Source of the DNA: an uncultured Actinomycetes bacterium
GTDB taxonomy: Bacteria > Actinomycetota > Actinomycetes > Nanopelagicales > Nanopelagicaceae
DNA length: 24,000 nucleotides
Direction of reading: 5' to 3'
NCBI GenBank assembly: GCA_903834145.1
Contig: CAILHY010000028.1
Coordinates: 6,325-30,324 of the forward strand
The position numbers were made by a program, and so were the translations under genes. This document shows positions 8,102-24,000 of the stretch, piece by piece; the stretch's first letter is position 1, and every line of letters begins with the position of its first letter. The notes below the pieces were generated by a model. The model saw only the letters and a program-made list of their open reading frames with translations, searched no databases and was not told the DNA's origin.

Positions 8102-9658
8102 CTACCGTGCTGGTAGCCGAAGAACGATATTTCTATCCTCTGGCCTTCCTTGCGCCCACGCATCAACATCTTCCATTCCCGCAGCAGGCCGTTTCTGCCA
8201 GGCATTAGCACTGAGCACTCGTGACAAAGAGGCGATCTCTAAGGGTGTCTTCGCTTGCGCGTACTCTGCCTCTCCCGCATGATCAACCACTGTGAGTCCA
8301 ATGTAAATATCTCCAGCGTCATCGCGAACAACTTCAACCGTGCGACTTTGCTGTGGCCAGTCCACATGGGAAGCGGTCTCTACTTGCCACAGACCGATAT
8401 TTCTTTCTTGGTCGCCTATCCATTCAATGTGGTGTCGATGTTCGTGGCCAGCAAGCCACAAGATCACCTTGGGATATTTGATCAACATCGCTTCAATTTC
8501 TTCCCGGCATACACGTCGTCCGCTTGGTGCGTAGTCGTTAAACATTTTGGTCAGTGGATGATGGGAGGCAAGTACAACAGTGTTTGTTGATGATGCAATC
8601 TGGTCTTCTAGCCACTCAAACTGTTCTTCATCAAGGGATCCTTGCCATCCACCAAAATGATTCACGCTATCAATGACGATGAGTTTTACCGATCCAACAT
8701 TAGTTGCGTAGTACATCTTCTTATCGAGCGCGTTTTCTTGCGTGAATCCGTGACCTTTCGGCAACCCAGGAGATTTCAGATGCAACGCAGCAAATTCACC
8801 GCGCTCTACTGCGCGGCGTTGCAGGTCAGGAGTGACGAGAACGTAGGCAGCATCGCTAGAAGGGGGATAGTCGGCAGGGCCAATTTCGTTAAAAGCGCTA
8901 AGAGTTTGTTCAAGGGTCATCGTTGAAGGAAGTGATTCGTAACGCTTATCGGCAACCATGGCCTCTGAAATTCCACTGCTGGGAGTCACCGTTCCTTGCA
9001 AAAGTGCGTCATGATTTCCGTGAACGGCATACCAAGGAACGTTTAAACCCGTGGCAGTAAATGGCGCGCGGCACGAATCCAGCAATCCGGGAACTACCGG
9101 ATAGCCGTAACGAGCACGAGCTTGGTCATCTTCTTTTCCTGCCGGAGTTCCGTGCGGATGCCAATACTTTGCGTCATAGTGATCGGCGCCGTCATCGATG
9201 ACGCCTTCATATCGATCCAATGCGCCAGAGTCTGGGCGAATATCTTGACCGTCTAAAAGCGCCAAGTACCAATTGACTTCATTGACTTGTGCGTTATCTG
9301 TTGTGTCTCCTGTGATGATTGCAGCATCTACGTCATGTCCAGAAAGAGGTCCCTGTGCAAGTGCATTGAGTGATTGCACCATCGCTTCGACAACGTGCAC
9401 CGATAACATCGAATGGGCGCGATATGTGCCAATCGTTCCCACCTGATCGCGAATGGGGCTATCAGGATCTGCCCACCGATCCAGGAACTCTGGGCGCACG
9501 GGAGATTGAGTATCACATACATGAAGATCGGAGAGATGATGCATGATTAACAGGGGAGTGCTCTCGGTTGGAAAGGCTACTCCACTATGTTTTTCATCGG
9601 AAGTTTTGAAAAGATTGCGCCAGCCTTTTTCATTCGGAGTACCACGGGTGAAAGCCAT
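8102..9658 (-). CDS. Calcineurin-like metallophosphoesterase (large actinobacterial TIGR03767-like type)
   Basis: Metallophosphoesterase motifs appear in order: LSDLHVCD, ITGDTTDN, VHGNHD, ASHHPL and GHEHRH. I place the start at the ATG at 9658 (MAFTRG...), 5 nt after the upstream gene's stop. The ORF-track start at 9712 would overlap that gene by 50 nt. Confidence 0.75.
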   Translation of the reverse strand: MAFTRGTPNEKGWRNLFKTSDEKHSGVAFPTESTPLLIMHHLSDLHVCDTQSPVRPEFLDRWADPDSPIRDQVGTIGTYRAHSMLSVHVVEAMVQSLNALAQGPLSGHDVDAAIITGDTTDNAQVNEVNWYLALLDGQDIRPDSGALDRYEGVIDDGADHYDAKYWHPHGTPAGKEDDQARARYGYPVVPGLLDSCRAPFTATGLNVPWYAVHGNHDALLQGTVTPSSGISEAMVADKRYESLPSTMTLEQTLSAFNEIGPADYPPSSDAAYVLVTPDLQRRAVERGEFAALHLKSPGLPKGHGFTQENALDKKMYYATNVGSVKLIVIDSVNHFGGWQGSLDEEQFEWLEDQIASSTNTVVLASHHPLTKMFNDYAPSGRRVCREEIEAMLIKYPKVILWLAGHEHRHHIEWIGDQERNIGLWQVETASHVDWPQQSRTVEVVRDDAGDIYIGLTVVDHAGEAEYAQAKTPLEIASLSRVLSANAWQKRPAAGMEDVDAWAQGRPEDRNIVLRLPAR

Positions 9659-9662
9659 CGAA

Positions 9663-10556
9663 CTATGCCAGAGCGTGTGCGATCGCAGAAGTATGCGCGG
9701 GAGAGGAACCACAACAGGAGCCCACGATATTCACTCCCATTTCTTTCATTTCGACCGCGTACTTTGCCATTTCTTCTGGAGTGCCTTCATAAACAAATGT
9801 GTCGCCCACCAGTTTTGGTAAACCAGAATTAGATTGCGTGATGATGTACACGCCCTCTGGCCGCGCATCGACAAGTTCGCGGGCAATTTGGCGCATCTCA
9901 TCCACGCCGCGTCCACAGTTGGCACCGATAATTCGGACTCCGAGAGCGCTGAGGTGCGCAACGGCTTGAGCTGGCTTCACACCCATCATGGTGCGAAGGT
10001 TGGTATCAAAACTCATGGTGGCAATGATCGGTAAATGAGGAGCAACTGCGTGAGAGGCGTTGACCGCGGCCTCAACTTCAGAAAGGTCGCTCATCGTTTC
10101 AATCAAGATTGCGTCAACTCCACCGGCCACTAGCCCTCGAATTTGTTCTGCGAATATTTCCTGGGCGCTCTCCATGGTGAGTGTTCCCATGGGTTCCATG
10201 AGATCACCAGATGGACCAATATCTCCCATCACAAAGGTACCTGGATGGCGATTAGCAACTGTGCGAGCAATACGGGCACCAGCTTCATTGAGCTCCCCAA
10301 CGCGAGATTCGAGCCCGTGAAGTTCTAGGCGCCCGCGCGTGCCGCCAAAAGTATTTGTCGTAATAAATTTTGCACCAGCTGCTGCATATTCTTCGAGAAC
10401 TGCTTCAATGTCCGCTGGCCGATCAACGTTCCACAATTCTGGTGCTCCGCCATCATCAAGGCCACGGCCTTGCAACATGGTGCCCATTCCGCCGTCGGCG
10501 GCCAAAGTGGCGTGGGCTAGGGCTGCATAAATTGCGTTATCGTCTTTCGTGGGCAC
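9663..10556 (-). CDS. Homocysteine S-methyltransferase family protein (MmuM/Hcy-binding-domain type)
   Basis: The N-terminal block DGGMGTMLQ, the ITTNTFGG block and the C-terminal Zn-ligand block IVGSCCGSSPAHTSAI are typical of Pfam S-methyl_trans. The protein is 297 aa with a GTG start at 10556. Confidence 0.8.
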   Translation of the reverse strand: MPTKDDNAIYAALAHATLAADGGMGTMLQGRGLDDGGAPELWNVDRPADIEAVLEEYAAAGAKFITTNTFGGTRGRLELHGLESRVGELNEAGARIARTVANRHPGTFVMGDIGPSGDLMEPMGTLTMESAQEIFAEQIRGLVAGGVDAILIETMSDLSEVEAAVNASHAVAPHLPIIATMSFDTNLRTMMGVKPAQAVAHLSALGVRIIGANCGRGVDEMRQIARELVDARPEGVYIITQSNSGLPKLVGDTFVYEGTPEEMAKYAVEMKEMGVNIVGSCCGSSPAHTSAIAHALA

Positions 10557-10576
10557 TGGGGAAGTGTACCCTCGCT

Positions 10577-11320
10577 TTGTTGCGGAGGTGGGAATTGCTG
10601 TCGTTTATTCTTCTTGTCATCACGGGATTTGTTGTTGGGACAATTAATGGAATGGCAGGTGGAGCTTCCCTGATTTCATTTCCCATCTTGTTGGCACTAG
10701 GTCTCAATCCAGTGACTGCCACCGTGACAAATGCTGTTGGGATAACGAGCGCAAATCTCTTTGCGGTGCGCGCAAGTGATCAAAGTGCAAAAAAACTAAT
10801 CCGTGCATTCAAATATCATATAATTTTGGCATCAATATTTGCCTGCATAGGTGCGATGCTATTGCTGGCTCTTCCTTCACGTGTATTCGAAGGTGTGGTT
10901 CCATACTTGCTTTTGGGAGCAACGCTTTCAATTCTCATTCCAGCAAAAGCCCGAGAAGGCATGAGAAACACTGTTGCCGAATTCATGGCCACAGCAGCAA
11001 GTGGTTTTTACTGTGGCTATTTCGGACCAGGGCAAGGAGTGATGGTTATTGCACTCCTGTCCCGAGACAAAAATCGGGACCCCAAGACCATCAATGCCGT
11101 GAAAAATGTAATTACAGGCATTACAAGTGTGATTTCCAATATTATTTATATCTTCAGTGGCAGGGTGCACTGGCTATTTGCTGCAGGATTATTTATCGGA
11201 TCAAGTTTTGGCGGAACTTTAGGCGGCAAATGGGCGAATAAAATGCCACCGATCTTTTACAAGTCCTTGGTCTTTGCCGTAGGAATCATTGCCTCGGTTT
11301 GGCTCTTTGTTCGCAATTAA
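10577..11320 (+). CDS. TauE/SafE-family anion (sulfite/organosulfonate) exporter-like membrane protein
   Basis: The protein is polytopic and hydrophobic. It has the family-typical motif GTINGMAGGASLISFPILLALGL and a second half with GYFGPGQGVMVIALL. I trimmed the start to the TTG at 10577 (or 10580). The ORF-track extension from 10370 is non-hydrophobic and lies antisense inside the neighbouring gene. Confidence 0.7.
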   Translation: MLRRWELLSFILLVITGFVVGTINGMAGGASLISFPILLALGLNPVTATVTNAVGITSANLFAVRASDQSAKKLIRAFKYHIILASIFACIGAMLLLALPSRVFEGVVPYLLLGATLSILIPAKAREGMRNTVAEFMATAASGFYCGYFGPGQGVMVIALLSRDKNRDPKTINAVKNVITGITSVISNIIYIFSGRVHWLFAAGLFIGSSFGGTLGGKWANKMPPIFYKSLVFAVGIIASVWLFVRN

Positions 11321-12036
11321 ACCAGATCAAGTATTCCCTCTTCGGTCATAATCTGGCTGTACCGCAGCCGATCTTCGTCGCTGACCTCTGCCCACGTCCT
11401 GGCTGATGCCCTGACTCCATGACTCATGAATGCATTAATTTTTACTCGTACCGATGGATCGGCGCGAAGCAACCACTGAGCGGTCTTGCGCAATTCCTCA
11501 TCGGAATCATTCTGACCGGGAATGAGTAAGAGCCTGACTTCGTATAACTTTCCACGTGAGGCCAAATATTTTATTGTCTCAAGTACTGCCGTATTGGATT
11601 GCGTAGTCAGGGCGATGTGGCGTTCGTTATCGAGCACTTTAAGGTCCAGCATCACTCCATCGGTGACAGGCAGAAGCACTTCCCAAATATGTTTTTCCGC
11701 ATTTCCGTTGCTGTCGATAAATGTTGTGAGTTGTTTAAGATCTGGCGCGGCTTTTATCGCAGCAAAGAGATCAAAGAGAAATTCATGTTGAACTGTTGCT
11801 TCCCCACCTGAAACCGTTACGCCGGTTATGTAGGGGAGTGACTCTCGGATCTTGGTGAGCACCTCCTCGACGGAGTAATCCTTGGCGCGAGGGGTTTGCA
11901 AAGGAATAGTTTGAGGATTGTGGCAGGCAAGGCAATTGAAGTTGCATCCTTGCAGAAAGAGAACGAACCTATTTCCTGGGCCATCAACCCAGGAAAACTG
12001 AATGACGTCAGCTACTTGCGCGTGGTGAGCTCTCAT
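11317..12036 (-). CDS. Glycyl-radical enzyme activating protein (radical SAM, PflA/YjjW-like)
   Basis: The sequence SWVDGPGNRFVLFLQGCNFNCLACHNP combines the activase N-terminal motif with the CX3CX2C radical-SAM cluster. VSGGEATV is the SAM-binding GGE motif. The protein is 239 aa, and its start overlaps the end of the upstream putative glycyl-radical enzyme by 29 nt. Confidence 0.8.
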   Translation of the reverse strand: MRAHHAQVADVIQFSWVDGPGNRFVLFLQGCNFNCLACHNPQTIPLQTPRAKDYSVEEVLTKIRESLPYITGVTVSGGEATVQHEFLFDLFAAIKAAPDLKQLTTFIDSNGNAEKHIWEVLLPVTDGVMLDLKVLDNERHIALTTQSNTAVLETIKYLASRGKLYEVRLLLIPGQNDSDEELRKTAQWLLRADPSVRVKINAFMSHGVRASARTWAEVSDEDRLRYSQIMTEEGILDLV

Positions 12037-13555
12037 GGCTCATGACCCGCTTCACTATTCGTTGATCCACATGAGAATCAGCGACAGATCCCGCGCCGAG
12101 GTATGTGCTTGCATGTCGGGCGCTGGGCATTTTCGCGAGGTCTGATTTTCGCACCAGATAACCTGTGATGCGTATGAAGTCATTGCTATCAAGGTTGAAT
12201 GTGAAATCGCGCATCCCGTCCTTGAAAGCACCTCGGATAACATCCACGACGGCTTGTGGATTTTTAACGGCGGTGTCATCAAAGGAAAGCACGTCACTGA
12301 TGCCGGATGCAAAGAGGTGATGATGGCGGCTCACTGTTTTAAGGTGCTCGAACAAAGGCGGCTCACTTCCGATGGGAATGCGAGTACCTGCAGTTACTCC
12401 AAGATCCAAGTCGATACCTGATTGCGAATGAAGCATGGCTCGCCCATCGTTGCCTTCGCAATAGGGCATTGGGCGATTAGCCACCCATGCTGCGATGGTG
12501 GATGTGATTCGGTAGGAAAGGTCATCTGCCTTTGCTGAATGACCATAAGTGTCACTGGAGCCCTCGCGCTCCATCAAAATGTTTACCGCTTCGGCAAGGC
12601 CAAAGATTCCAAACATTGCAGAGAATCTATCCAGTGACAGGAGACCCTCTTGCGCGAGCCAGTGCGAGGTGTAGAAGTGTGATTCTTCCACGAGGAATTT
12701 AATACGAGATTCCATGAGTTCGGCAGTGAGTTCCAAATAATGGGGCAAGGTAGTTGCGAAGAATTCATCTACTCCGCCGCCACCAGCGAGGACCGTTTCT
12801 TTGAGATTGATTCGTACGAGGGTATGTGAACCACCACCAATTTTAAGAGAGTTGTAGCAGCTCACTGCTGCGTAATCATGGCCCAAGTCCGCTTGCATCA
12901 TTTCATCATTAATAAAGTGTGGCTTTCCGCAGGCAAAGACTGTTGAGACTGCATCAAGAAGATACTCATTGCTTGTAAGAATTGGTTCGACTTTCAGTGA
13001 AATATTTGGAACCACTTGTAGCAGTTCTCGCTCGAGGGCCAGGATCGTTCTCGCAACACGGTTATATACGGGACTCAGATTTGTGTGCGCGAAAGCATCA
13101 GGGAACATTCGATCGAGAGAAATCCAGAATCGTTTGAGTTTTGCGTATAGATCTTCATCGCTGACATGGTCAACGTAAGGAAGAAGTAAAGTGTCAAGAT
13201 CTCCAAAATAGACTGGGTAGCCTGTGATGGATGGCGTTTGTGAATACATGATCAACAAAAATGCGAGAGCGTCATCAAGATTTTGTGCAGGAGGTAACTC
13301 TAAAAAAGCAGAGCCTTGGGTGAGAACGCGATCGTAATCAGGTAATAAATAGCGTGGACGATAGGGTGCGTTTCCTTCGTACATGTCGCAGATGATGCGT
13401 TTTTCCAGCGCGCTCGTGCATTCATCGCTGACAGTAGGTGGATCTAAGAGGTTCTCCGCCAAGTTGGCTAACCCCGCCACTCTTTGGCGATAGGTGTATT
13501 TAGGATTGGTAACCATGGCGCGGATGTCATCAAGTGGAGTGAACATGTACGCCAT
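12008..13555 (-). CDS. Putative short glycyl-radical enzyme, YjjI/HI0521 (DUF3029) type
   Basis: The ~515-aa protein (557 aa if the TTG at 13681 is used) has FIRITGYLV about 50 aa from its C-terminus, resembling the glycyl-radical fingerprint R-[IV]-x-G-[YF]. It is translationally coupled to an activase. It is too short for PFL-class enzymes. It lacks the Cys4 site and WNxGK tail of NrdD. The start is uncertain: ATG at 13555 or 13546, or TTG at 13681. Confidence 0.55.
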   Translation of the reverse strand: MAYMFTPLDDIRAMVTNPKYTYRQRVAGLANLAENLLDPPTVSDECTSALEKRIICDMYEGNAPYRPRYLLPDYDRVLTQGSAFLELPPAQNLDDALAFLLIMYSQTPSITGYPVYFGDLDTLLLPYVDHVSDEDLYAKLKRFWISLDRMFPDAFAHTNLSPVYNRVARTILALERELLQVVPNISLKVEPILTSNEYLLDAVSTVFACGKPHFINDEMMQADLGHDYAAVSCYNSLKIGGGSHTLVRINLKETVLAGGGGVDEFFATTLPHYLELTAELMESRIKFLVEESHFYTSHWLAQEGLLSLDRFSAMFGIFGLAEAVNILMEREGSSDTYGHSAKADDLSYRITSTIAAWVANRPMPYCEGNDGRAMLHSQSGIDLDLGVTAGTRIPIGSEPPLFEHLKTVSRHHHLFASGISDVLSFDDTAVKNPQAVVDVIRGAFKDGMRDFTFNLDSNDFIRITGYLVRKSDLAKMPSARHASTYLGAGSVADSHVDQRIVKRVMSHESSPRASS

Positions 13556-13674
13556 CCTAAGTCGCACTATGGGTGGGAAATAGGAAAGAGGGCTGCTCGG
13601 CCACCCCTTCGACACTCTTTGAGGGCTAGCACTTGATGGGAGCAGTTCTGTGCTCGAGGTATTAGCCTCTGGGG

Positions 13675-14703
13675 ATGTCAATCACCTCAGGTAACCCGGC
13701 TTTTGAGATTTATGCAGCAATTGGCGATGACCAACTCGAGTCACTGGCTCCGCTTCCCGCTGGTGGCTTCACGCGAGAAACTTTGAGGGTCGCACTTGTC
13801 CAAGATTTGTGGCACGGATCTATGGACGCGCAAATGGAATCGCTTGAAGGCGCCATCGATCTCTGTGCGGAATATCAACCAGATCTCATCGTCTTGCCCG
13901 AGCTCACTCTCTATCCCTATGCGTGTTGGCAACCCAATTCACAAGAATCTGATTTTCATCCCGAGGATCTCATGGAAGGCCCCTCGTACGTGTTTGCTCG
14001 GAAGATGGCACGGCGCGTAAAAGCGACAGTGGTTATTTCTCTCTATGAAAATCCGGATGATGAAAGCGAACTGGGTTACAACACTGCGATAACTCTTTCA
14101 CCAGCGGGTGAACTCGTCATGCGCACTCGCAAAACACATTTGCCACAAACAGCAGGATATTTTGAAAATACATATTTCAGTTGTGGCAATGATGGAACCC
14201 CTGGTGCGATCGTTGGCGAAGCAATCGTGGGAACGCCAACGTGCTGGGATCAATGGTTTCCTGAATTGGCTAGGGCATATGCACTCGAAAGCGCCGATGT
14301 TGTGATCTATCCGACGGCAATCGGCTCTGAACCAAATTTTCCACACTTTGATACCGCGCCATTGTGGAAGACAACAATGGTTGCCCATGCGATCGCTAAC
14401 GGACTCTTTGTTGGTGCCGTCAATCGCGTTGGCACTGAAGGGCCTAATACTTTTTATGGCTCCTCCTTTATTGCCGACCCATTTGGTCGCACATTGGTAG
14501 AGGCGGGAAGGGATGAGCAGGCAATTCTGATCGCCGATTGCGAGCTTGATCAACGAAGAGATTGGTTGACCCTCTTCCCATTCTTTAAGACCCGGCGCCC
14601 TGAGATGTACACATCCCTTGTTGCCGAGGAAGATGAAGCCCTTCAGCAAGTGGAGCAAGTGGAGCAAGTGGAGCAAGTGGAAGAAAAGGGAGATAGTCAA
14701 TGA
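13675..14703 (+). CDS. Carbon-nitrogen hydrolase, N-carbamoylputrescine amidase (AguB)-like
   Basis: The nitrilase-superfamily catalytic triad context is present: Glu in VLPELTLYPY, Lys in RKTHLPQ, and Cys in GTPTCWDQWFPELAR. CWDQWFPE is the block I associate with AguB. An alternative start is the TTG at 13783, just before LRVALVQ. The C-terminal tail carries a QVE repeat. Confidence 0.8.
   Translation: MSITSGNPAFEIYAAIGDDQLESLAPLPAGGFTRETLRVALVQDLWHGSMDAQMESLEGAIDLCAEYQPDLIVLPELTLYPYACWQPNSQESDFHPEDLMEGPSYVFARKMARRVKATVVISLYENPDDESELGYNTAITLSPAGELVMRTRKTHLPQTAGYFENTYFSCGNDGTPGAIVGEAIVGTPTCWDQWFPELARAYALESADVVIYPTAIGSEPNFPHFDTAPLWKTTMVAHAIANGLFVGAVNRVGTEGPNTFYGSSFIADPFGRTLVEAGRDEQAILIADCELDQRRDWLTLFPFFKTRRPEMYTSLVAEEDEALQQVEQVEQVEQVEEKGDSQ
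14646..14681 (+). repeat. Perfect 9-bp tandem repeat (GCAAGTGGA x4), in frame in the tail of the C-N hydrolase
   Basis: Read directly from the sequence: gcaagtgga occurs at 14646-14654, 14655-14663, 14664-14672 and 14673-14681. It encodes QQVEQVEQVEQVEE. Confidence 0.95.
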
Positions 14704-16325
14704 GTGCCACGGTATTTACCAATGGAACAATCTGGACGGGCGTTGAGTCCAATCTCATTGTTGGGGCGCTGGCCATTGAAGGCGAATCCATAGTCGCACT
14801 GGGCGCGCAAGCCACCGAATTGATTTCATCCGGTGGGGATGTGATAGATCTTCAAGGCGGGATGTTGCTACCGGCATTTGGCGATGGACATGCGCACCCA
14901 CTCTTTGGCGGTCTGGAATCCATTGGGCCACAAATTAAGGGTGCTCCCTCCATGGACGTTCTCTTGGAAACGGTGAAGGCCTTTGCGTTGGCGAATCCTG
15001 ACAAAGAATGGATCGTGGGCGCCTCCTATGAATCCTGGCATGCACCTAATGGTGAATTTGATGCAACGTGGCTAGATGCCGCTGTTTCAGATCGCCCCGT
15101 CGTACTGCGCGCAAATGATTACCACACGATTTGGTGCAACTCCAAGGCCCTTGAAATTGCAGGAGTCACGAAAGAAACCCCGCAACCGCCACTAGGAATG
15201 ATTGTTCACCGCCCAGATGGAACGCCGATGGGCACCATGCGCGAATGGGGCGCAGTGAATTTGATTATGGATCACCTGCCAGAAAATTCTCGCACGGAAT
15301 TTCGTGAAGGTTTTCGTGTATCTACTCAAACACTTGCTGCCTCAGGAATTACGTGGGTGCAGGATGCATGGATTGATCCAGGAATGCCCGAGTCTTATTT
15401 GGATGCACTTGCCAATGGTTTACTGGGAGTGCGCTACAACCTGGCACTTCGAGCCGATCCATTTAACTGGCGAAATCAGATGGAGTGGTTTTCATCAGCT
15501 CGCGAAAAAGTAGGCGTTCATAGCCACCTCACCTGTAAGACTATTAAATTCTTTGCAGATGGTGTCATCGAAGGTGGAACAGCAGCGCTCAAAGATCCAT
15601 ACTTTGATGCTCCAGAATCCAAGGGGATGCCGTGTTGGGATTGGCAAGAACTCACAGAGGCCGTTACTGCCATCGATGCATTGGGGTTTCAACCTCATAT
15701 TCACGCCATCGGCGATGACGGTATTCATGCAGCGTTGAATGCTATTGAGTATGCACAATCCATCAATAAAGAACGTTCGCATCCGCGACCAGTGATTACT
15801 CATGTGCAACTTCTTGATCCAGTGGACCTGCCACGTTTTGCGAAGCTCGGTGTTGTTGCAAATTTCGAACCTCTGTGGGCATGTAATGATCCATTACAGA
15901 GTGAGCTCACAACGCCACGACTCGGTGTGGACCGTGCCGCCTGGCAGTATCCGATCAAGTCACTTCTGGCCGATGGCGCAGCCGTCTCCTTTGGTTCGGA
16001 TTGGCCCGTGACAACACAGCGCCCCCTTGATTGCTTAACAATTGCCGTGACACGTGAGCATGCACTTGCCGAACATCCCACCCCATGGCTTCCGGATGAG
16101 CGAATCACCATTGACCAAGCGCTTACTGCTTACACCGCGGGTCCTGCTTATCAAGCCGGGGATGAAGGCATTCGCGGGACTTTGCAAGTGGGCTACCAAG
16201 CCGACTTGGTCTGGTTGGATCGAAACATTCGAAGTATTGATCCCACACAAATTCCTTCGGCGCGTGTACTTGGCACCTGGTGCCTTGGCACGAGAGTATT
16301 CACGCACACCGATGAAGCGAATTAG
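14700..16325 (+). CDS. Metal-dependent amidohydrolase (Amidohydro_3 / YtcJ-like)
   Basis: The N-terminus has TNGTIWTG...LLPAFGDGHAHPLFGG, the HxH metal site. Later blocks are HIHAIGD, ITHVQLL and FGSDWPV. The protein is 541 aa, and its ATG overlaps the upstream stop (ATGA). Confidence 0.75.
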   Translation: MSATVFTNGTIWTGVESNLIVGALAIEGESIVALGAQATELISSGGDVIDLQGGMLLPAFGDGHAHPLFGGLESIGPQIKGAPSMDVLLETVKAFALANPDKEWIVGASYESWHAPNGEFDATWLDAAVSDRPVVLRANDYHTIWCNSKALEIAGVTKETPQPPLGMIVHRPDGTPMGTMREWGAVNLIMDHLPENSRTEFREGFRVSTQTLAASGITWVQDAWIDPGMPESYLDALANGLLGVRYNLALRADPFNWRNQMEWFSSAREKVGVHSHLTCKTIKFFADGVIEGGTAALKDPYFDAPESKGMPCWDWQELTEAVTAIDALGFQPHIHAIGDDGIHAALNAIEYAQSINKERSHPRPVITHVQLLDPVDLPRFAKLGVVANFEPLWACNDPLQSELTTPRLGVDRAAWQYPIKSLLADGAAVSFGSDWPVTTQRPLDCLTIAVTREHALAEHPTPWLPDERITIDQALTAYTAGPAYQAGDEGIRGTLQVGYQADLVWLDRNIRSIDPTQIPSARVLGTWCLGTRVFTHTDEAN

Positions 16326-16340
16326 GGACGGTATTTAGAG

Positions 16341-17264
16341 ATGACTTTGGATTTATCGCTGCCAACTGCGCACGATGATTCGGAGGCACCCGGTAAAACA
16401 AGTAAATGGTTAGCCGTTGCGCCCATGGCATTTCTTTCGATGACCGTGGCGATTCCGCTGATCATCATCTTCGTGTATTCCTTTCTCGCCCGTCCGGAAC
16501 TCGGCGCAGGTGTTGTCTGGAAGTTTGATCCCACACACTATGTGAAGATTTTTATCCAGGACCGTTTGGATGGAACCCGCAGTTTTGATACTCGGTATTT
16601 AAAAGTTATTTGGAACTCTTTCTATTATTCGGGTATCACCACAGTTGCAACCCTCGTGCTTGCGATACCGATTGCAATGTGGATCGCGACTCGTGATCCG
16701 CGACGAAGAGTGTTGTTGGTTTTTCTCGTAACGCTTCCATTTTGGACAAGTATTCTCATTCGCACCTATGCAATTACGCAATTGTTGGATGAGAAAGGAG
16801 TCCTGGGCAAGATCGTCTCCTTTCTTGGATATAAAGGTCACTTCCAGATTTTGTACACGCCGACAGCCACAGTTCTTGGATTGATCTACACATTCTTGCC
16901 TTTCATGATTTTGCCTATTTACGCATCGGCCGAGCGTTTTGATTTCAGGTATGCAGAGGCGGGATACGACCTAGGGGCGCGGAAGATGACGGTTCTCTTT
17001 CGTATTGTTTTGCCTCAAATTTCCCCCGGGATCATGGCAGGCGTTGCGCTGGTCTTCATTCCCGGACTCGGTTCCTTCCTCCAACCAGACATGCTCGGTG
17101 GCGGTAAGACAAACATGATTGCAAATGTGGTGGCAAACAATTATGGACAGGCGCGTAACTGGCCCTTTGGTTCAGCCCTCTCGGTACTTTTATGTGTGAT
17201 CACTTTGGTCGCTACTTTGTTGCTCTCAGTTGCGGCCCGCAAGCGAAAGGCGAAACGAGTATGA
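16341..17264 (+). CDS. potB: ABC transporter permease, spermidine/putrescine PotB-like
   Basis: The 307-aa polytopic protein has a binding-protein-dependent transport EAA-type loop (ERFDFRYAEAGYDLGARKMTVLFRIVLPQISPGI). It sits in an operon with a second permease and a PotD-like binding protein. Confidence 0.8.
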   Translation: MTLDLSLPTAHDDSEAPGKTSKWLAVAPMAFLSMTVAIPLIIIFVYSFLARPELGAGVVWKFDPTHYVKIFIQDRLDGTRSFDTRYLKVIWNSFYYSGITTVATLVLAIPIAMWIATRDPRRRVLLVFLVTLPFWTSILIRTYAITQLLDEKGVLGKIVSFLGYKGHFQILYTPTATVLGLIYTFLPFMILPIYASAERFDFRYAEAGYDLGARKMTVLFRIVLPQISPGIMAGVALVFIPGLGSFLQPDMLGGGKTNMIANVVANNYGQARNWPFGSALSVLLCVITLVATLLLSVAARKRKAKRV

Positions 17265-18076
17265 GGACTCTATTTTCGCGCAATCGTTTAGTTAACTTAC
17301 GTAACTTCCCATTTTTCACAGCGATCTCCTACTTGGTGTACTTCATTCTCTACGTGCCATTAGTGCTGGTGATTATTTATTCCTTCAATCAAAATCGCAC
17401 CGCGCAAATTTGGACACGCTTTTCTACTCGTTGGTATACCGATGTATTTACCAATACTGATGTTGTTCGCTCATTGAAAAATTCATTGATTGTTGGCTCG
17501 GCAGCAACGGTCCTATCTACTCTGCTCGCTATTGCTGGCGCCCTCGGGCTCTTGCGTATGGGGCGAAAGGGGAGCACCTTTGCACTTGGTCTTTTAGGTG
17601 CGCCACTGATCATTCCTGAAATCGTTTCCGCAGTCGGAACACTTGGGTTTTTCTTATTTGTAGGGATACCACTCGGGCACTTTGGCCTTATTTTGGCCCA
17701 CACAGCGTTCTGCGTTCCCTTTGCCATGTTGCCGATTCGCGCCAGACTCGTTGCGCTAGATCGCAGCTCCTTTGAAGCCGCTGCAGATTTAGGTGCAAAT
17801 GAATGGAAGATTTTTACCTGGATCACCCTGCCCTTGCTTGCTCCAGGCATTATGGCTGGTGCCCTATTGGCTTTTGCTATCTCTTTGGATGACTTCATTA
17901 CATCGTTCTTCATTGCTGGTCCTGGTTCAACAACCTTGCCGGTCTACATCTTCGGCATGATTCGATCCAATGTGACACCAGCAATCAATGCTCTTTCAAC
18001 CTTGTTGTTACTCGTCTCAGGTCTTACCCTAATCCTGTCATACGCCCTTTCGACCCGAACTCAAGATAGGAAGTAG
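17261..18076 (+). CDS. potC: ABC transporter permease, spermidine/putrescine PotC-like
   Basis: The polytopic protein has the EAA loop SSFEAAADLGANEWKIFTWITLPLLAPGI. I set the start at the ATG at 17261, which overlaps the potB stop (ATGA). The ORF-track start at 17192 lies inside potB. Confidence 0.8.
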   Translation: MRTLFSRNRLVNLRNFPFFTAISYLVYFILYVPLVLVIIYSFNQNRTAQIWTRFSTRWYTDVFTNTDVVRSLKNSLIVGSAATVLSTLLAIAGALGLLRMGRKGSTFALGLLGAPLIIPEIVSAVGTLGFFLFVGIPLGHFGLILAHTAFCVPFAMLPIRARLVALDRSSFEAAADLGANEWKIFTWITLPLLAPGIMAGALLAFAISLDDFITSFFIAGPGSTTLPVYIFGMIRSNVTPAINALSTLLLLVSGLTLILSYALSTRTQDRK

Positions 18077-18079
18077 TAC

Positions 18080-19186
18080 ATGAAATTCTTTACCCGCAAG
18101 GTTGGCGTTGCGATCGCGCTCGCTGCTGTAGCAAGTCTTGGACTTGTCGCTTGCAGCAGTAGTTCATCCACAACGACAGCTTCATCGAGCACTGCTTTTC
18201 CTACCCCTAAAGGCGGAGAGCTAAACCTTTACAACTGGACTAACTACATCGATCCAGCTCAATTGAAAGCATTCACCGCCGAAACTGGCATCAAAGTGAA
18301 TCTCGATACATTCGATTCAAACGAGACACTCCTTGCAAAGTTGCAAGCAGGCGCTACGGGTTATGACGTCATTGTTCCAAGTGATTACATGGTTGCACAG
18401 ATGGTGACGCTTGGATTACTTGAAAAGGTTGATGTTGCAGGATTCCCTAATGGGAAAAACATTGATCCAAACTTCTTGAATGTTTACTGGGATAAGGGCC
18501 GCCAATACACGGCTCCTTATATGTACGGGACCACTGGTATCGCCGTCAATATGAAAGATCCAGTCGCCTCCAAGATCACTTCATGGAAAGATTTCTTTGC
18601 AGCCGCAAAGGGAACTTCCGTAGATGTGCTTAAAGATCAGACTGAAGTTGTTTCCGCTGCCCTTCGTGCAACGGGCGTAGCCGCTGCCGACCTTTGCACC
18701 ATTGATAAGACCAAGTACGCAGCAGCACAGAAACTACTCGATACATTCAAGCCAAAGGTTATTAACTCTGATGGCGGAATCGAACGTATGGTTAAAGAAT
18801 CGAGCATGGTTCGCATGGCCTGGAACGGTTCGGTTCACCGCATGACCGTTGATAACAAGAACATCAAGTATGTCTTCCCGACAGAAGGTTTGAACTTCTG
18901 GGCAGATAACTTGGCAATCGCTAAGGGTGCCAAGAATCTTGATAATGCAAAGATCTTTATCAACTGGATGCTCAACCCTAAGCAGGGGGCGGTTGCCACG
19001 AACTTCACAGGTTATGCCAATGCGGTTCTTGGTTCAGGCCCATTCATGGATCCAGCCATCAAAGCAGATCCTGCAATTAACACCACACCTGAGAACGCAA
19101 AGTTGGCAACACCAACTCCTAACTGCCCAACAGCAGCTCGCGATCTCTACACCGAAGTCTTTACGAGTTGGACTTCATCTCAATAA
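18080..19186 (+). CDS. potD: Polyamine-type ABC substrate-binding lipoprotein (PotD/PotF-like)
   Basis: A lipoprotein signal with lipobox is present (ALAAVASLGLVAC followed by a Ser/Thr-rich linker). The blocks LNLYNWTNYIDP and YDVIVPSDYMV are typical of PotD/PotF family binding proteins. AGGAAG lies upstream of the ATG. Confidence 0.8.
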   Translation: MKFFTRKVGVAIALAAVASLGLVACSSSSSTTTASSSTAFPTPKGGELNLYNWTNYIDPAQLKAFTAETGIKVNLDTFDSNETLLAKLQAGATGYDVIVPSDYMVAQMVTLGLLEKVDVAGFPNGKNIDPNFLNVYWDKGRQYTAPYMYGTTGIAVNMKDPVASKITSWKDFFAAAKGTSVDVLKDQTEVVSAALRATGVAAADLCTIDKTKYAAAQKLLDTFKPKVINSDGGIERMVKESSMVRMAWNGSVHRMTVDNKNIKYVFPTEGLNFWADNLAIAKGAKNLDNAKIFINWMLNPKQGAVATNFTGYANAVLGSGPFMDPAIKADPAINTTPENAKLATPTPNCPTAARDLYTEVFTSWTSSQ

Positions 19187-19202
19187 GTGCAAACTTCATA
19201 AG

Positions 19203-19243
19203 AAAAGGGCGGCCACTATATTGCAGTGGTCGCCCTTTTCTTA
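19203..19243. terminator. Bidirectional rho-independent terminator between convergent potD and potA
   Basis: The left arm AAAAGGGCGGCCACT (19203-19217), loop ATATTGC and right arm AGTGGTCGCCCTTTT (19225-19239) form a 15-bp stem with one G-U pair. The stem is flanked by A-runs and T-runs on both sides, so it can terminate transcription from either direction. Confidence 0.8.
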
Positions 19244-19260
19244 TGAAGAAATATTTAGTT

Positions 19261-20340
19261 TTATGAAGCAAGAACGCGAATAGTTCCTTCGATTGCGCCG
19301 AGTTGTACCTCGATACCTCGCTCTGGAACTGAAACTCCGTGAGAAGGTAAGACAGCAACAACTTCTTCGGATCCGATAGTGACATGTACGCGAACAGCGC
19401 TTCCCGTGAAGATCACATCGCGAACAACTCCGGCAAGGATTCCTTGGTTTTGCGTGATGATGAGATCCTCGGGACGGATAGCGACAACGGAGGATCCATT
19501 TTCTCCGATGATGGCGTTTTCAGCCAGAGATTGCACAGGTACGACCTGGCCATTGATGGACACAACTCCAGCATGGATTTCGCAGGGGAATAGATTAGTT
19601 TCGCCAATGAAATCAGCAACAAATCGATTTGCAGGATTGCGGTACATCTCGCGAGGTGTATCTAGTTGAACGACTTCCCCTTCGGAAAATACTGCGATGC
19701 GATCGCCCATGGACATCGCTTCTTCTTGATCGTGCGTGACGAATACAAAAGTGATACCCGTGTCTTGTTGCAATCTTTTGAGTTCCACTTGCATGCCGCG
19801 TCGTAGCTTGAGATCAAGTGCCGACAGTGGCTCATCAAGGAGAAGCACTCGAGGCCCTTTAATAAGGGCGCGACCAAGGGCAACACGTTGTTGTTGGCCA
19901 CCGGAGAGCTGTGAAGGTTTGCGTCGACCGTAACCCGTGAGCTTTATTTGAATGAGAGTGGTTTCAACTCGTTGGGCTATTTCTTCTTTACTTAATTTTT
20001 CCATCTCTAAACCGAAGGCAATATTTTCAGCAACACTCATATGGGGAAAGAGTGCATAGGACTGGAAAACTGTATTAACCGGACGGGCATAGGCAGGTTT
20101 GTCATCGATGCGGGCTCCATCGAGCAGGATCTCCCCGCTATCGGGATATTCAAGTCCGGCAATGGTGCGAAGGAGCGTTGTCTTACCGCATCCCGATGGA
20201 CCCAGCAGGACGATAAATTCACCTTGCGTAATATCTAGCGAGACGCCTTTGAGAGCTTGGACAGATCCGCCCTCTGGTGTTGCGTAGGTCTTGCTTACAT
20301 TTCGAATCTCAAGAAGCGGTTGGGTCATGGGAGAGTTCAC
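19261..20340 (-). CDS. potA: ABC transporter ATP-binding protein, spermidine/putrescine PotA-like
   Basis: Walker A is GPSGCGKTT, the signature is [15 protein letters not shown], Walker B is [12 protein letters not shown] and the H-loop is VTHDQ. A C-terminal TOBE-like domain is present. The start is GTG at 20340 or ATG at 20328. Confidence 0.85.
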
Positions 20341-20371
20341 TTACCTATTATTGACAAGGCGCGCGCCATGG

Positions 20372-21913
20372 TCAAGATTGTGAAATCTTCGTTTTGCGGG
20401 GAGTCGCGAAGGATTTGCCAACGGCCGTAAGTTCTTCGCTGACCTGCTTTTTGATGTTCTCTTCACTTTTGAGCAAGGTTACCAGCGCTGAAATCGTAGA
20501 TTTGAGATCCTTTTGCTCAGATTCCAATTCCAACTTGGACATCTTGGTCAATCTTCGAAGTGGCATATCTAAAATGTACGTGGCTTGTTCGTCGTTGAGT
20601 TTGAATCCTTTGATTAAAGCTTCTTTTGCTTGAGCAGCATCATCGCTTCCACGAATAATCTTGATGACCTTATCGATATCAATGATCGCTTTAAGGAGTC
20701 CATCGACCAAGGTAAGACGGGAAGTTGCTTTTGCTTTACGGAATTCTGACCTGCGACGAACAACCTCAATGCGGTGGGCGATAAAGACCTGAAGCAATTC
20801 TTTGAGCCCGAGTGTTTGTGGTTTACCTTTCACTAGCGCCACTGCATTGATAGCAAAGGCATCTTCCATGGGAGTGAGTTTGTAGAGTTGTTCCAGAACC
20901 GCTTCGGGTTCAAATCCATTCTTTAATTCAATGACAACATTGGTACCTGTTTTGCCATCGGTGAGGTCGATGATGTCAGAGATACCCTGAATCTTCTTCG
21001 CCTTTGCTAGATCGGCGATACGTTCGACAACTTTTTCTGGTCCGATCGTAAATGGAAGTTCCTTGATGGTGATACCCATTTTGCGCGAGGTAACTTTGCT
21101 GATTTCAACAGTTGCACGGACTTTGAAGCTACCTTTGCCTGTTGCGTAGGCTTCTCTAACGCCTTCGACTCCGACGAGTTCGCCACCTGTTGGAAAATCC
21201 GGTCCAGGAATGAATTTCATGAGTTGTTTGAGTGTTGCTGTTGGGTTTTCGATTAAGAACTTTGTAGCAGCGATCACTTCGCCCAGGTTATGTGGCGCCA
21301 TGTTGGTTGCCATACCCACTGCGATTCCCGAACCGCCGTTGACAAGCAAGTTGGGGTAAGCCGCAGGCAGAACCAGGGGCTCCATAATTTGTCCGTCGTA
21401 GTTGGATCCAAAATCGACAGTGTCTTCATCTGCTTCGGCAACCATTGCCATTGCAGGTAGCGCCAGGCGAGCTTCGGTGTAGCGCATTGCGGCAGGGCCG
21501 GCATCGAGTGAACCGAAGTTTCCATGCCCATCAATAAGGGGCAGCCGCATGGAAAACGACTGGGCCATCCGAACGAGGGCGTCGTAGATCGCGCCATCAC
21601 CGTGAGGGTGCAACTTTCCCATAACTTCACCAACCACACGAGCGCTCTTTACGTGGCCACGTTCTGGTCTAAGGCCCATGTCGGCCATCTGATGAAGAAT
21701 TCTGCGGTGAACTGGTTTCAATCCATCACGTGCATCAGGAAGCGCACGTGAGTAGATGACTGAATACGCATACTCAAGAAATGATTCCGACATTTCCGAG
21801 GAGACATCGATATCTACGATCTTGCCGGGGAATTCTCCTGGCTTGGGACCAACAGGTTTCTTGCCTTTGGTCGCGCTTTTCTTTACAGGAGATGAACTTT
21901 TCGCATTAGCCAT
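20372..21913 (-). CDS. parC: Type IIA DNA topoisomerase A subunit (ParC/GyrA-like), N-terminal breakage-reunion domain only
   Basis: Conserved blocks are YSVIYSRALPDARDGLKPVHRRIL and HPHGDGAIYDALVRMAQ. The catalytic Tyr lies in GPAAMRYTEARL, followed by LLVNGGSGIAVGMATNMAPHNL and the coiled-coil region. The ORF ends at ...FATPRKTKISQS, the position where the C-terminal beta-pinwheel domain normally begins. It is 513 aa, against roughly 750-850 aa for canonical ParC/GyrA. Confidence 0.85.
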   Translation of the reverse strand: MANAKSSSPVKKSATKGKKPVGPKPGEFPGKIVDIDVSSEMSESFLEYAYSVIYSRALPDARDGLKPVHRRILHQMADMGLRPERGHVKSARVVGEVMGKLHPHGDGAIYDALVRMAQSFSMRLPLIDGHGNFGSLDAGPAAMRYTEARLALPAMAMVAEADEDTVDFGSNYDGQIMEPLVLPAAYPNLLVNGGSGIAVGMATNMAPHNLGEVIAATKFLIENPTATLKQLMKFIPGPDFPTGGELVGVEGVREAYATGKGSFKVRATVEISKVTSRKMGITIKELPFTIGPEKVVERIADLAKAKKIQGISDIIDLTDGKTGTNVVIELKNGFEPEAVLEQLYKLTPMEDAFAINAVALVKGKPQTLGLKELLQVFIAHRIEVVRRRSEFRKAKATSRLTLVDGLLKAIIDIDKVIKIIRGSDDAAQAKEALIKGFKLNDEQATYILDMPLRRLTKMSKLELESEQKDLKSTISALVTLLKSEENIKKQVSEELTAVGKSFATPRKTKISQS

Positions 21914-21939: not shown

Positions 21940-22833
21940 TTAAATCGCGGTAGTGACCTGCGGTCTGGCCCCAACGATTGCAACACAGCGCCCCGCCACT
22001 TCGATAGCGGCCTTCATAGCGCTCTCAACTTCGTGATTTCCCAGCCATGATGCTATGTACCCACCAGCAAATGAGTCTCCGGCTCCCGTGGAATCAACAA
22101 GAATCGCATGTGCTGCGGGAAATGAATGTGCACAACCATGTCGATCTTTGCCAATGGCACCCTCGCCTCCACGTTTGATAATCACAGTCGGCGTCATGGT
22201 AAGAAGTTCTTCAAGGGCTTGGATTAATTCACTCTTATTGGAAAGATATTTTGCTTCTTCCTCATTCATGATGAGGGTGGACATCAAGGGAAGCCAACTG
22301 CGCACTTCTTCAAAAGGTGCTTGGTTCATTCCACCAATAGTCGTGGGGTCAAAAAATATCGGCAACCCTTTATTGTTAATCGCCTCCACCATGCTTAATA
22401 CCCCGGGCCGAGATTGTGAATTCAAGAGTGCATAACCAGAGAGATAGACGGCATCAAAGTTCGAAAGATCGGGTAGGTCTGCCAAGGTAAGACCAGCATT
22501 TGCCGCAGTTTCAGGGAACATGGTGCGCTCTCCTGTGGGATCTACCAAGATGACAACTACCCCTGTACGAACTCCCTCGATAACCGCATCACCATGTTCG
22601 ACACCCAGGCGATCGAGGTCACTAAGAACAGCCACCCCTGCAGGGTCATTTCCCACTCGTGCAAGAACGTAAGAATCGACCCCACAGGCTTTAATCCAGG
22701 AGGCGACATTTCCACCGGCGCCACCACTGTGAGTGGATACTTGGGAAGGTGTGTCACTTCCGTAATTGATAGCGGCAGGAACAAGTGCAATGACATCGAG
22801 CATGACATCCCCGATGCAGAGCACTTTTGGCAT
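21940..22833 (-). CDS. PfkB-family carbohydrate/nucleoside kinase, probable pseudouridine kinase
   Basis: Ribokinase-like motifs are present: GGAGGNVA near the N-terminus and the PfkB signature DSTGAGDSFAGGYI near the C-terminus. The gene starts 5 nt downstream of psuG, matching the known psuG-psuK pairing. Confidence 0.75.
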   Translation of the reverse strand: MPKVLCIGDVMLDVIALVPAAINYGSDTPSQVSTHSGGAGGNVASWIKACGVDSYVLARVGNDPAGVAVLSDLDRLGVEHGDAVIEGVRTGVVVILVDPTGERTMFPETAANAGLTLADLPDLSNFDAVYLSGYALLNSQSRPGVLSMVEAINNKGLPIFFDPTTIGGMNQAPFEEVRSWLPLMSTLIMNEEEAKYLSNKSELIQALEELLTMTPTVIIKRGGEGAIGKDRHGCAHSFPAAHAILVDSTGAGDSFAGGYIASWLGNHEVESAMKAAIEVAGRCVAIVGARPQVTTAI

Positions 22834-22838
22834 GGAAG

Positions 22839-23753
22839 TTATTCTGCGCTAGCTACTGCTATGTCAGCAGCAAGTGCCGAATTTGATTTAATAATTTCAA
22901 TATTTACCGCAAGGGATTCACCCTCACTGGCGGTATGAAAATGCTCAAGTAAGAATGGTGTGACTGCTTTACCAGTGACATTTTCCGCTTTCGCTTTCGC
23001 TAATCCGCTAGCGAGAATTGCATCATGACGAGCATGATCCATTTCTTTCACCACGGGGTTAGCAACAATTAGCGCAGAATTATTGGTGCCAATCAGGGCG
23101 CGCGATTTCACGATATCTGCAATCTCTCGTGCACTCTCTACCCGATGCTCCAGAGTGAAACCTGAATCGGTGAAGTAGAAGCCCGGGAAGTGGGTGGTTT
23201 TGAAACCAACGACAGCGATAGCAAGTGACTCCAGGCGCTCCAACGTGGCGCCGATATCGAGAATCGATTTCACCCCCGCACAGATCACTGTGACGTCCAA
23301 GTGAGAAAGGGCGGTCAGATCTGCAGACTCATCAAATGACTCATTTGCTCCTTGATGGACACCACCTAAACCGCCTGTCGCAAATACATTGATTCCAGCC
23401 TGTACAGCAAGGTGAGCAGTGGCGGCAACGGTGGTCGCTGCGCTTTTGCCTTGTGCCACAACAACTGCAAGGTCGCGACTGGATGCCTTGACGATGTCAT
23501 CCCTAGTGGCAATTGCAATAAGTTCTGAATCAGAGAGTCCGATATGAATCACTCCGTCGATGACGGCAATGGTTGCTGGTGTTGCTCGGCGAGCTCGGAT
23601 GATTTCTTCAACTTCACGGGCAACTTCAAGATTTTGTGGACGCGGAAGCCCGTGGCTGATAATCGTTGACTCGAGGGCGACGATCGGAGTGCCGTTTTCG
23701 CGTGCCAGGCGAACTTCTTCGGAATACTTTATTGGAGAAATACTTTTGCTCAT
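22839..23753 (-). CDS. psuG: Pseudouridine-5'-phosphate glycosidase
   Basis: The match to remembered E. coli YeiN/PsuG blocks is strong: PIVALESTIISHGLP, PATIAVIDG, VFATGGLGGVH, FDESADLTAL and VTVICAGVKSILD. I set the start at the ATG at 23753 (MSKSISPIKYSEEV). The ORF-track extension to 23933 adds 60 non-conserved residues. Confidence 0.9.
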   Translation of the reverse strand: MSKSISPIKYSEEVRLARENGTPIVALESTIISHGLPRPQNLEVAREVEEIIRARRATPATIAVIDGVIHIGLSDSELIAIATRDDIVKASSRDLAVVVAQGKSAATTVAATAHLAVQAGINVFATGGLGGVHQGANESFDESADLTALSHLDVTVICAGVKSILDIGATLERLESLAIAVVGFKTTHFPGFYFTDSGFTLEHRVESAREIADIVKSRALIGTNNSALIVANPVVKEMDHARHDAILASGLAKAKAENVTGKAVTPFLLEHFHTASEGESLAVNIEIIKSNSALAADIAVASAE

Positions 23754-23790
23754 GGCTCCACGATAGTGGATTTGATGGGATGATTGCACG

Positions 23791-24000
23791 GTGCATTTAG
23801 CAGATATCGGCTCATCCATTTTTTCTAGTTTAGGACTAGTCGACACACAAGATCTTCTCGATTGCGGAACAAGTCCAGCAGGCCGCGAATGTTTGTTTCT
23901 CGTAGATGGTTTAGGTGCCGAAGTAATTTCCACTTACGCAGATCTTCTTCCAACCTTGTCCAATTTCAAGTATTTTTCCCCTGTTGAAACCTCATTTCCA
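23791..24000 (+). CDS. Nucleotide pyrophosphatase/phosphodiesterase (alkaline-phosphatase superfamily) protein, N-terminal 70 aa; continues beyond the right edge
   Basis: My own translation from the GTG at 23791 gives VHLADIGSSIFSSLGLVDTQDLLDCGTSPAGRECLFLVDGLGAEVISTYADLLPTLSNFKYFSPVETSFP. The pattern L.D..PS...LG, then LVDGLG, then SFP(STT) is typical of actinobacterial PF01663-type proteins. The frame is open to the window end, and an in-frame stop lies at 23773. Confidence 0.5.
   Translation, partial: MHLADIGSSIFSSLGLVDTQDLLDCGTSPAGRECLFLVDGLGAEVISTYADLLPTLSNFKYFSPVETSFP

Follow-up and report, generated by a model that had tools for sequence, protein, structure and literature searches.

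Can the A subunit of a topoisomerase IV (ParC) that stops where its N-terminal, breakage-reunion domain stops be the complete product of an evolved domain loss, or is it one part of a split gene, a decaying copy or an error of assembly? The question is raised by a 24,000-nucleotide stretch of DNA (hereafter the window) from an uncultured actinobacterium of the Nanopelagicaceae (GenBank assembly GCA_903834145.1, contig CAILHY010000028.1, positions 6,325 to 30,324). On its minus strand an open reading frame of 513 amino acids (ATG start, TGA stop at 20372-20374) occupies positions 20372-21913 and encodes a topoisomerase IV A subunit with the breakage-reunion domain only; the gene is referred to here as parC-short. 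The initial annotation gave its span as 20341-21913, of which 20372-21913 is the frame itself, while the remainder from 20341 takes in an intergenic spacer of 31 nt. It is very likely that this gene encodes the ParC of topoisomerase IV, that a beta-pinwheel of ~320 residues was deleted from it once, in a forebear shared by most of the family's genera, and that the N-terminal domain has since been kept by strong purifying selection.

The Pfam model PF00521 matches residues 56-495 of the product over profile positions 1-431 of 432 (E = 9.8e-149). The Arg-Tyr dyad is present within AMRYTEARL (residues 142-150), where Arg144 precedes the catalytic Tyr145 (codon at 21479-21481, minus strand), a residue kept in all aligned orthologs, and the HPHGD helix is present as HPHGDGAIYD (residues 102-111; 21583-21612, minus strand), the helix of the ParC quinolone-resistance region. 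In sequence alignments, residues 27-511 run continuously along the solved N-terminal-domain structures (4ddq, 6fqm, 3ifz and 2nov) and reach their last residues: the aligned portion is 7-488 of 490 residues in Staphylococcus aureus GyrA (6fqm_A), 7-482 of 496 in Streptococcus pneumoniae ParC55 (2nov_A) and 10-498 of 508 in Mycobacterium tuberculosis GyrA (3ifz_A), and Bacillus subtilis GyrA (4ddq_A) is also among these end-to-end PDB matches, which are engineered N-terminal fragments. Judged from these alignments, the product contains the tower, the coiled coil and the C-gate, up to the last part of the domain. It is thus a whole breakage-reunion domain, from the winged helix and its Arg-Tyr active site to the C-gate, and nothing else, and it spans the same residues as the engineered GyrA59 and ParC55 crystallisation constructs.

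The domain is closed by a conserved F-A-T-P-R-(R/K)-T motif, here FATPRKT (residues 502-508; 20390-20410, minus strand), which is followed only by ISQS and then the stop; the protein ends 5 residues past the motif, its C-terminal end reading ...SFATPRKTKISQS. No match to the beta-pinwheel model PF03989 was obtained when the product was scanned with Pfam, and the C-terminal beta-pinwheel of the canonical bacterial GyrA/ParC architecture is absent. The N-terminal landmarks and the end at the domain boundary that were described in the initial annotation are therefore both recovered, by the nearly complete PF00521 match, the structural alignments and the position of the stop.

Of the two type IIA A subunits, the product resembles ParC. 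The NCBIfam model NF004044 (topoisomerase IV-type subfamily, 738 positions) is matched at positions 2-478 only, with 713.9 bits against a cut-off of 654, and the NCBIfam gyrA equivalogs score below their own cut-offs. Identity to the GyrA of the same genome is only 46%; it is 61-65% to the full-length ParC proteins of class-level relatives and 69-70% to the full-length forms of three genera of the same family (g22, g30 and g31). Because these identities, the NF004044 score and the tree described below agree, the sequence comparisons identify the product as an ortholog of the full-length actinobacterial ParC and not of GyrA.

The missing C-terminal domain (CTD) could in principle be encoded separately, elsewhere in the genome, and join the enzyme as a third subunit. 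The clean domain boundary would fit such a split gene, with nothing further in its favour beyond the state of the source genome (1.75 Mb, 33 contigs, 98.6% complete), a draft in which a small gap is possible for this genome alone. That genome contains exactly two A-type genes, parC-short and, on another contig, the gene for an 835-aa GyrA with six PF03989 blades; its B-type genes (PF00204) are also two, the parE of the window and, on contig 13, a gyrB that adjoins gyrA and with it encodes a separate, complete gyrase. A Pfam scan of the whole genome revealed no PF03989 repeats outside the 835-aa GyrA, which extends to the genome the earlier statement that no pinwheel frame lies nearby. Searches of the genome with the CTDs of three full-length relatives (tblastn) found the GyrA CTD only, the other hits having E values of 0.067 or worse, and a search with the g22 CTD of five closed genomes from five short-form genera likewise found GyrA only. 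No CTD is encoded elsewhere in the source genome or in the five closed relatives. The split gene, which had been put forward as the alternative to domain loss, is exceedingly improbable.

The short form is widespread in the family. For the comparison with relatives, the order-level sample consisted of Nanopelagicaceae genomes only and class-level genomes served as outgroups. Each of the other 24 genomes of the genus has the short form, in open frames of 516-576 aa with 88-97% identity (one copy is cut by a contig end). When 121 genomes were sampled across the family, all matched genomes of 15 of the 18 genera had it as well. Carriers include ~50 closed single-contig genomes and cultured isolates such as IMCC19121 and IMCC26103, and the related loci include those of Candidatus Planktophila sp., Candidatus Nanopelagicaceae bacterium, acI-Phila and actinobacterium SCGC AAA044-N04; the lineage is that of the acI freshwater Actinobacteria (Nanopelagicaceae). 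The comparison of ortholog lengths called for in the initial annotation shows proteins of ~800-850 aa, with a pinwheel of ~320 aa, in the other three genera and in the sampled class-level relatives. Within the family these are the 819-aa and 823-aa open frames of g22 and g30 and a frame of at least 679 aa in g31, which is cut by a contig end and includes the start of the CTD. The class-level relatives, from 14 other families, have open frames of 820-1193 aa (together with one copy cut by a contig start), corresponding to proteins of 811-843 aa when counted from the chosen start codon.

All the short orthologs examined end 3-14 residues past the F-x-T-P-R-(R/K)-T motif; in the full-length orthologs, ~320 aa follow the same motif and score above the cut-off for PF03989 (DNA_gyraseA_C beta-pinwheel). 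More than 100 genomes, closed chromosomes and isolates among them, have this stop position in common, and only the position is shared, the stop codon itself differing by lineage (TGA, TAG or TAA). These observations bear on the possibility that a normal parC of ~820 aa has been cut short, by a recent nonsense mutation, a frameshift or a join made in assembly, and is a pseudogene. What had drawn attention to it is a GC palindrome shortly past the stop codon (GGCGCGCGCC, a perfect palindrome of 10 nt at 20358-20367 in the spacer between parC and potA, with no T run after it). None of the 80 related loci has the palindrome, not even one whose ParC protein is 98% identical. Further points against an artefact or decay are that both the stop codons and the genes downstream differ among lineages with the common stop position, that the spacer of 31 nt (20341-20371, minus strand), which contains the palindrome, is without room for a CTD remnant, and that the catalytic motifs are all intact in a gene with a ratio of nonsynonymous to synonymous substitution rates (dN/dS) of ~0.04. 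There is practically no chance that parC-short is an artefact or a pseudogene, and the earlier concern about an assembly join or frameshift is removed by the short forms of cultured isolates and of dozens of closed genomes. As a conserved signal or an assembly joint the palindrome was itself rejected because it is not conserved, and it has no bearing on the truncation.

The origin of the short form was placed by a maximum-likelihood tree built from the N-terminal domains, with the class-level sequences as the root; a copy at a contig end that could be assigned to neither form (g30_G069) was left out. The 16 short forms group together in a single clade (support 100/99), with the full-length genera of the family outside it, and this clade is nested among full-length actinobacterial ParC proteins. 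The tree requires a single change between the short and the full-length state and, because the short forms form one clade, the domain was lost once. Pairwise dN/dS values (Nei-Gojobori) were obtained for 81 genus-level genes, and the 124 pairs with dS of 0.05-1.5 gave a median of 0.04 (range 0.008-0.08), which indicates that parC-short is under strong purifying selection. The earlier preference for evolved domain loss over decay is thus upheld by the shared stop position, the single nested clade and the strength of selection.

In a wider comparison, in which 1.8 billion proteins were reduced to representatives at 50% identity, the Nanopelagicaceae short form makes up one cluster within the 150 best hits. 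Most of the other hits among these 150 are at least 750 aa long, and the shorter ones resemble fragments or other short forms. The exception is P0130, a GyrA/ParC-like protein of 499 aa and 45% identity, which ends after ...WGTPRKT and is without a Lys-rich N-terminal tail; it is probably a further independent CTD-less lineage.

A subunit without its CTD might have been repurposed, either to pair with GyrB as a second, non-supercoiling gyrase or to serve outside topoisomerase function. A precedent for the former is that engineered GyrA without the CTD forms an ATP-dependent relaxase with GyrB (PMC8216471). Against it, the genome encodes a dedicated ParE distinct from GyrB, the presumed partner of ParC-short. 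As the initial annotation stated, this ParE is full length: it is encoded on the plus strand (6022-8097), has 691 aa and contains the four expected domains (HATPase_c, DNA_gyraseB, Toprim and GyrB_C), an architecture that is the same, by alignment, whether a genus has the short or the full-length ParC. The parE gene lies near parC in the family loci examined, and ParC-short keeps all of its active-site and gate elements. Repurposing is very improbable, and parC-short is best read as the A subunit of topoisomerase IV.

The CTD of ParC is regarded as the source of the preference of topoisomerase IV for positive supercoils and catenanes. By analogy with CTD-deleted enzymes, the most likely function of ParC-short is in a minimal ParC2ParE2 topoisomerase IV, which would decatenate and relax DNA with ATP and would be without CTD-based sensing of supercoil handedness. 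ParC-short and ParE would assemble into a ParC2ParE2 heterotetramer and act, through the usual two-gate strand passage, as an ATP-dependent decatenase and relaxase. Decatenation and relaxation without negative supercoiling would be expected because the CTD and GyrA box are absent and because of the behaviour of CTD-deleted enzymes: with B subunits, CTD-deleted fragments are ATP-dependent relaxases or decatenases that show no handedness preference and have a lower affinity for DNA, and deletion of the CTD reduces DNA affinity in both gyrase and topoisomerase IV (PMC8216471). The natural enzyme would by the same analogy be blind to handedness and bind DNA more weakly, and the positive supercoils ahead of replication forks would be left for gyrase to remove.

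Some of the lost affinity may be restored at the other end of the protein. ParC-short begins with a Lys-rich tail (residues 1-31; 21821-21913, minus strand), which ends in GPKPGEFPGK and contains 8 lysines, no arginine and one acidic residue; its role can only be inferred, and an unspecific contribution to DNA affinity is speculative. A further proposal, which would add to the domain loss and not replace it, is that the loss is compensated, the role of the CTD having been taken over by the Lys-rich tail with its GPKPGE-x-(P/A)-G-(K/R) motif, by a less acidic surface of the N-terminal domain or by an unrelated accessory protein, with substrate preference kept. The net charges are consistent with this proposal. 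Short-form tails carry +2 to +10 and their N-terminal-domain cores -5 to +2, whereas full-length tails carry 0 to +3, with almost no lysine, and their cores -1 to -14; the ParE cores are unshifted, at -6 to -1 in short-form genera as against -3 and +4 in two full-length genera. Against it, the CTD-less representative P0130 manages without a Lys-rich tail, the enrichment in lysine may just track the lower G+C content of these genomes, and the CTDs of full-length actinobacterial ParC proteins are themselves net negative (-3 to -8). Compensation of this kind is considered unlikely. The more specific idea, that the tail and the less acidic surface form a replacement DNA-handling element and let the enzyme decatenate efficiently, perhaps with its substrate preference kept, in a way undescribed for type IIA topoisomerases, is rather improbable.

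Several points weigh against the minimal topoisomerase IV proposed here. Topoisomerase IV of the E. coli type needs its CTD for substrate discrimination, and a CTD-less enzyme might, by that analogy, be a poor decatenase unless compensated. No compensating change was found in ParE when short-form and full-length genera were aligned, the architecture being the same with no gained domain, and no substitution was found to be fixed between the short and full-length forms, allowing at most one exception per group. The two remaining points count equally against a compensating tail: the loss is a single evolutionary event, so that no statistical test is possible, and tail length varies; and in g25, the earliest-branching short-form genus, the tail is short and its charge is only +2.

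The domain-loss reading can be set against known systems. The full-length actinobacterial ParC proteins (811-843 aa), which together with their ParE make up topoisomerase IV of the Streptomyces type, are alike in their 61-65% identity over the N-terminal domain, in the pfkB-parC neighbourhood and in having the same kind of ParE; unlike parC-short, they add the PF03989 pinwheel of ~320 aa after F-x-T-P-R-R-T. Engineered fragments, namely E. coli GyrA59 and GyrA64, S. pneumoniae ParC55, S. aureus GyrA 2-491 and the M. tuberculosis GyrA N-terminal domain, have domain limits within a few residues of those of ParC-short, but are laboratory constructs, whereas the Nanopelagicaceae protein is natural, is maintained by selection across a bacterial family and has gained a Lys-rich tail at its N-terminus. 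With the NCBIfam model NF007208 ('topo IV subunit A', 479 positions), which probably represents the chlamydial family, the product scores only 148 bits, far below the cut-off of 598. Natural type IIA A subunits without a CTD also occur in enzymes of the phage T4 gp52 type, which likewise need no pinwheel for their activity, or are presumed not to need one. They belong to a separate and deeply diverged lineage, while here the canonical topoisomerase IV ortholog itself has lost the domain.

A ParC without a CTD has already been reported for Chlamydia (PMC8216471). Like the present case, the chlamydial protein is a natural ParC consisting of the N-terminal domain only, in a small-genome bacterium with a normal gyrase (PMC8216471); it differs in belonging to another phylum and in its independent origin. 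The loss in the Nanopelagicaceae is independent of the chlamydial one because the tree places the short form within the full-length actinobacterial ParC proteins, with the domain lost inside the family. The chlamydial report lowers the novelty of the finding: the Nanopelagicaceae ParC is a second natural example of a CTD-less ParC and not a new kind of enzyme. No paper was found in the literature searched that joins Nanopelagic* or Planktophila with topoisomerase.

Around parC-short the genes run in the same direction. Directly downstream and outside the enzyme, 31 nt away on the same strand as previously noted, is the gene for a PotA-like ABC transporter ATPase (19261-20340, minus strand; ABC_tran and TOBE_2 domains); the gene in this position varies between genera. 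Upstream are two co-directional genes assigned by Pfam, a pfkB-family kinase (21940-22833, minus strand) and a pseudouridine-5'-phosphate glycosidase-like gene (22839-23933, minus strand). Both lie ahead of parC in L021, L022, L023, L026 and L027, the family loci examined, and this neighbourhood is also kept beside full-length parC in relatives; in the class-level relative L030 an open reading frame of ~300 aa, assigned by position, stands in the place of the kinase.

On the far side of the PotA-like gene, ~10.6 kb (window 9713-20340) separate parC from a metallophosphoesterase-like gene of 536 aa (8102-9712). This interval contains genes for a CN-hydrolase, an amidohydrolase, two ABC permeases, a solute-binding protein and the PotA-like ATPase. 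In the closed genomes of g33 and g18 an open reading frame of 534-535 aa directly follows parC; if it is the same gene as the metallophosphoesterase-like one, an insertion or rearrangement would have taken place between the two genes in the source genus.

Three further observations concern the protein and its functional surroundings. Gly107 of HPHGDGAIYD aligns with the Ser of the HPHGDS motif, the classic quinolone-resistance position of GyrA and ParC; Ser is found in g33 and in one class-level relative and Val in G014, and these differences are natural variation at a drug-contact position. In the CTDs of three full-length orthologs (L021:4634-5590, L022:4055-5020 and L030:4611-5570), where the net charge is -3 to -8, Pfam detects only 1-2 blades each, and it may be that the CTD bound DNA only weakly even in the ancestor. 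Concurrent loss of SMC was not found, SMC being present in short-form and full-length genera alike. Its open frame has 1036 aa in the closed 1.2-Mb genome of g18 (G041:C1:760656-763733), with positions ~500-682 of TIGR02168 unmatched, and SMC has 1182-1220 aa in G000, G045, G048 and G053; the coiled coil or hinge region of SMC may be shortened in this most streamlined genus.

For annotation, the finding means that acI genes of ~500 aa which bear the label 'DNA topoisomerase IV subunit A' are complete, and are neither fragments nor pseudogenes. For the biology of the family, it means that a group of freshwater bacteria that ranks among the most abundant has long lived without a domain tied to the substrate preference of topoisomerase IV. 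Close relatives in the same family keep the CTD, which provides a natural matched pair for studying the need for this domain in vivo and the limits of a minimal type IIA decatenase.

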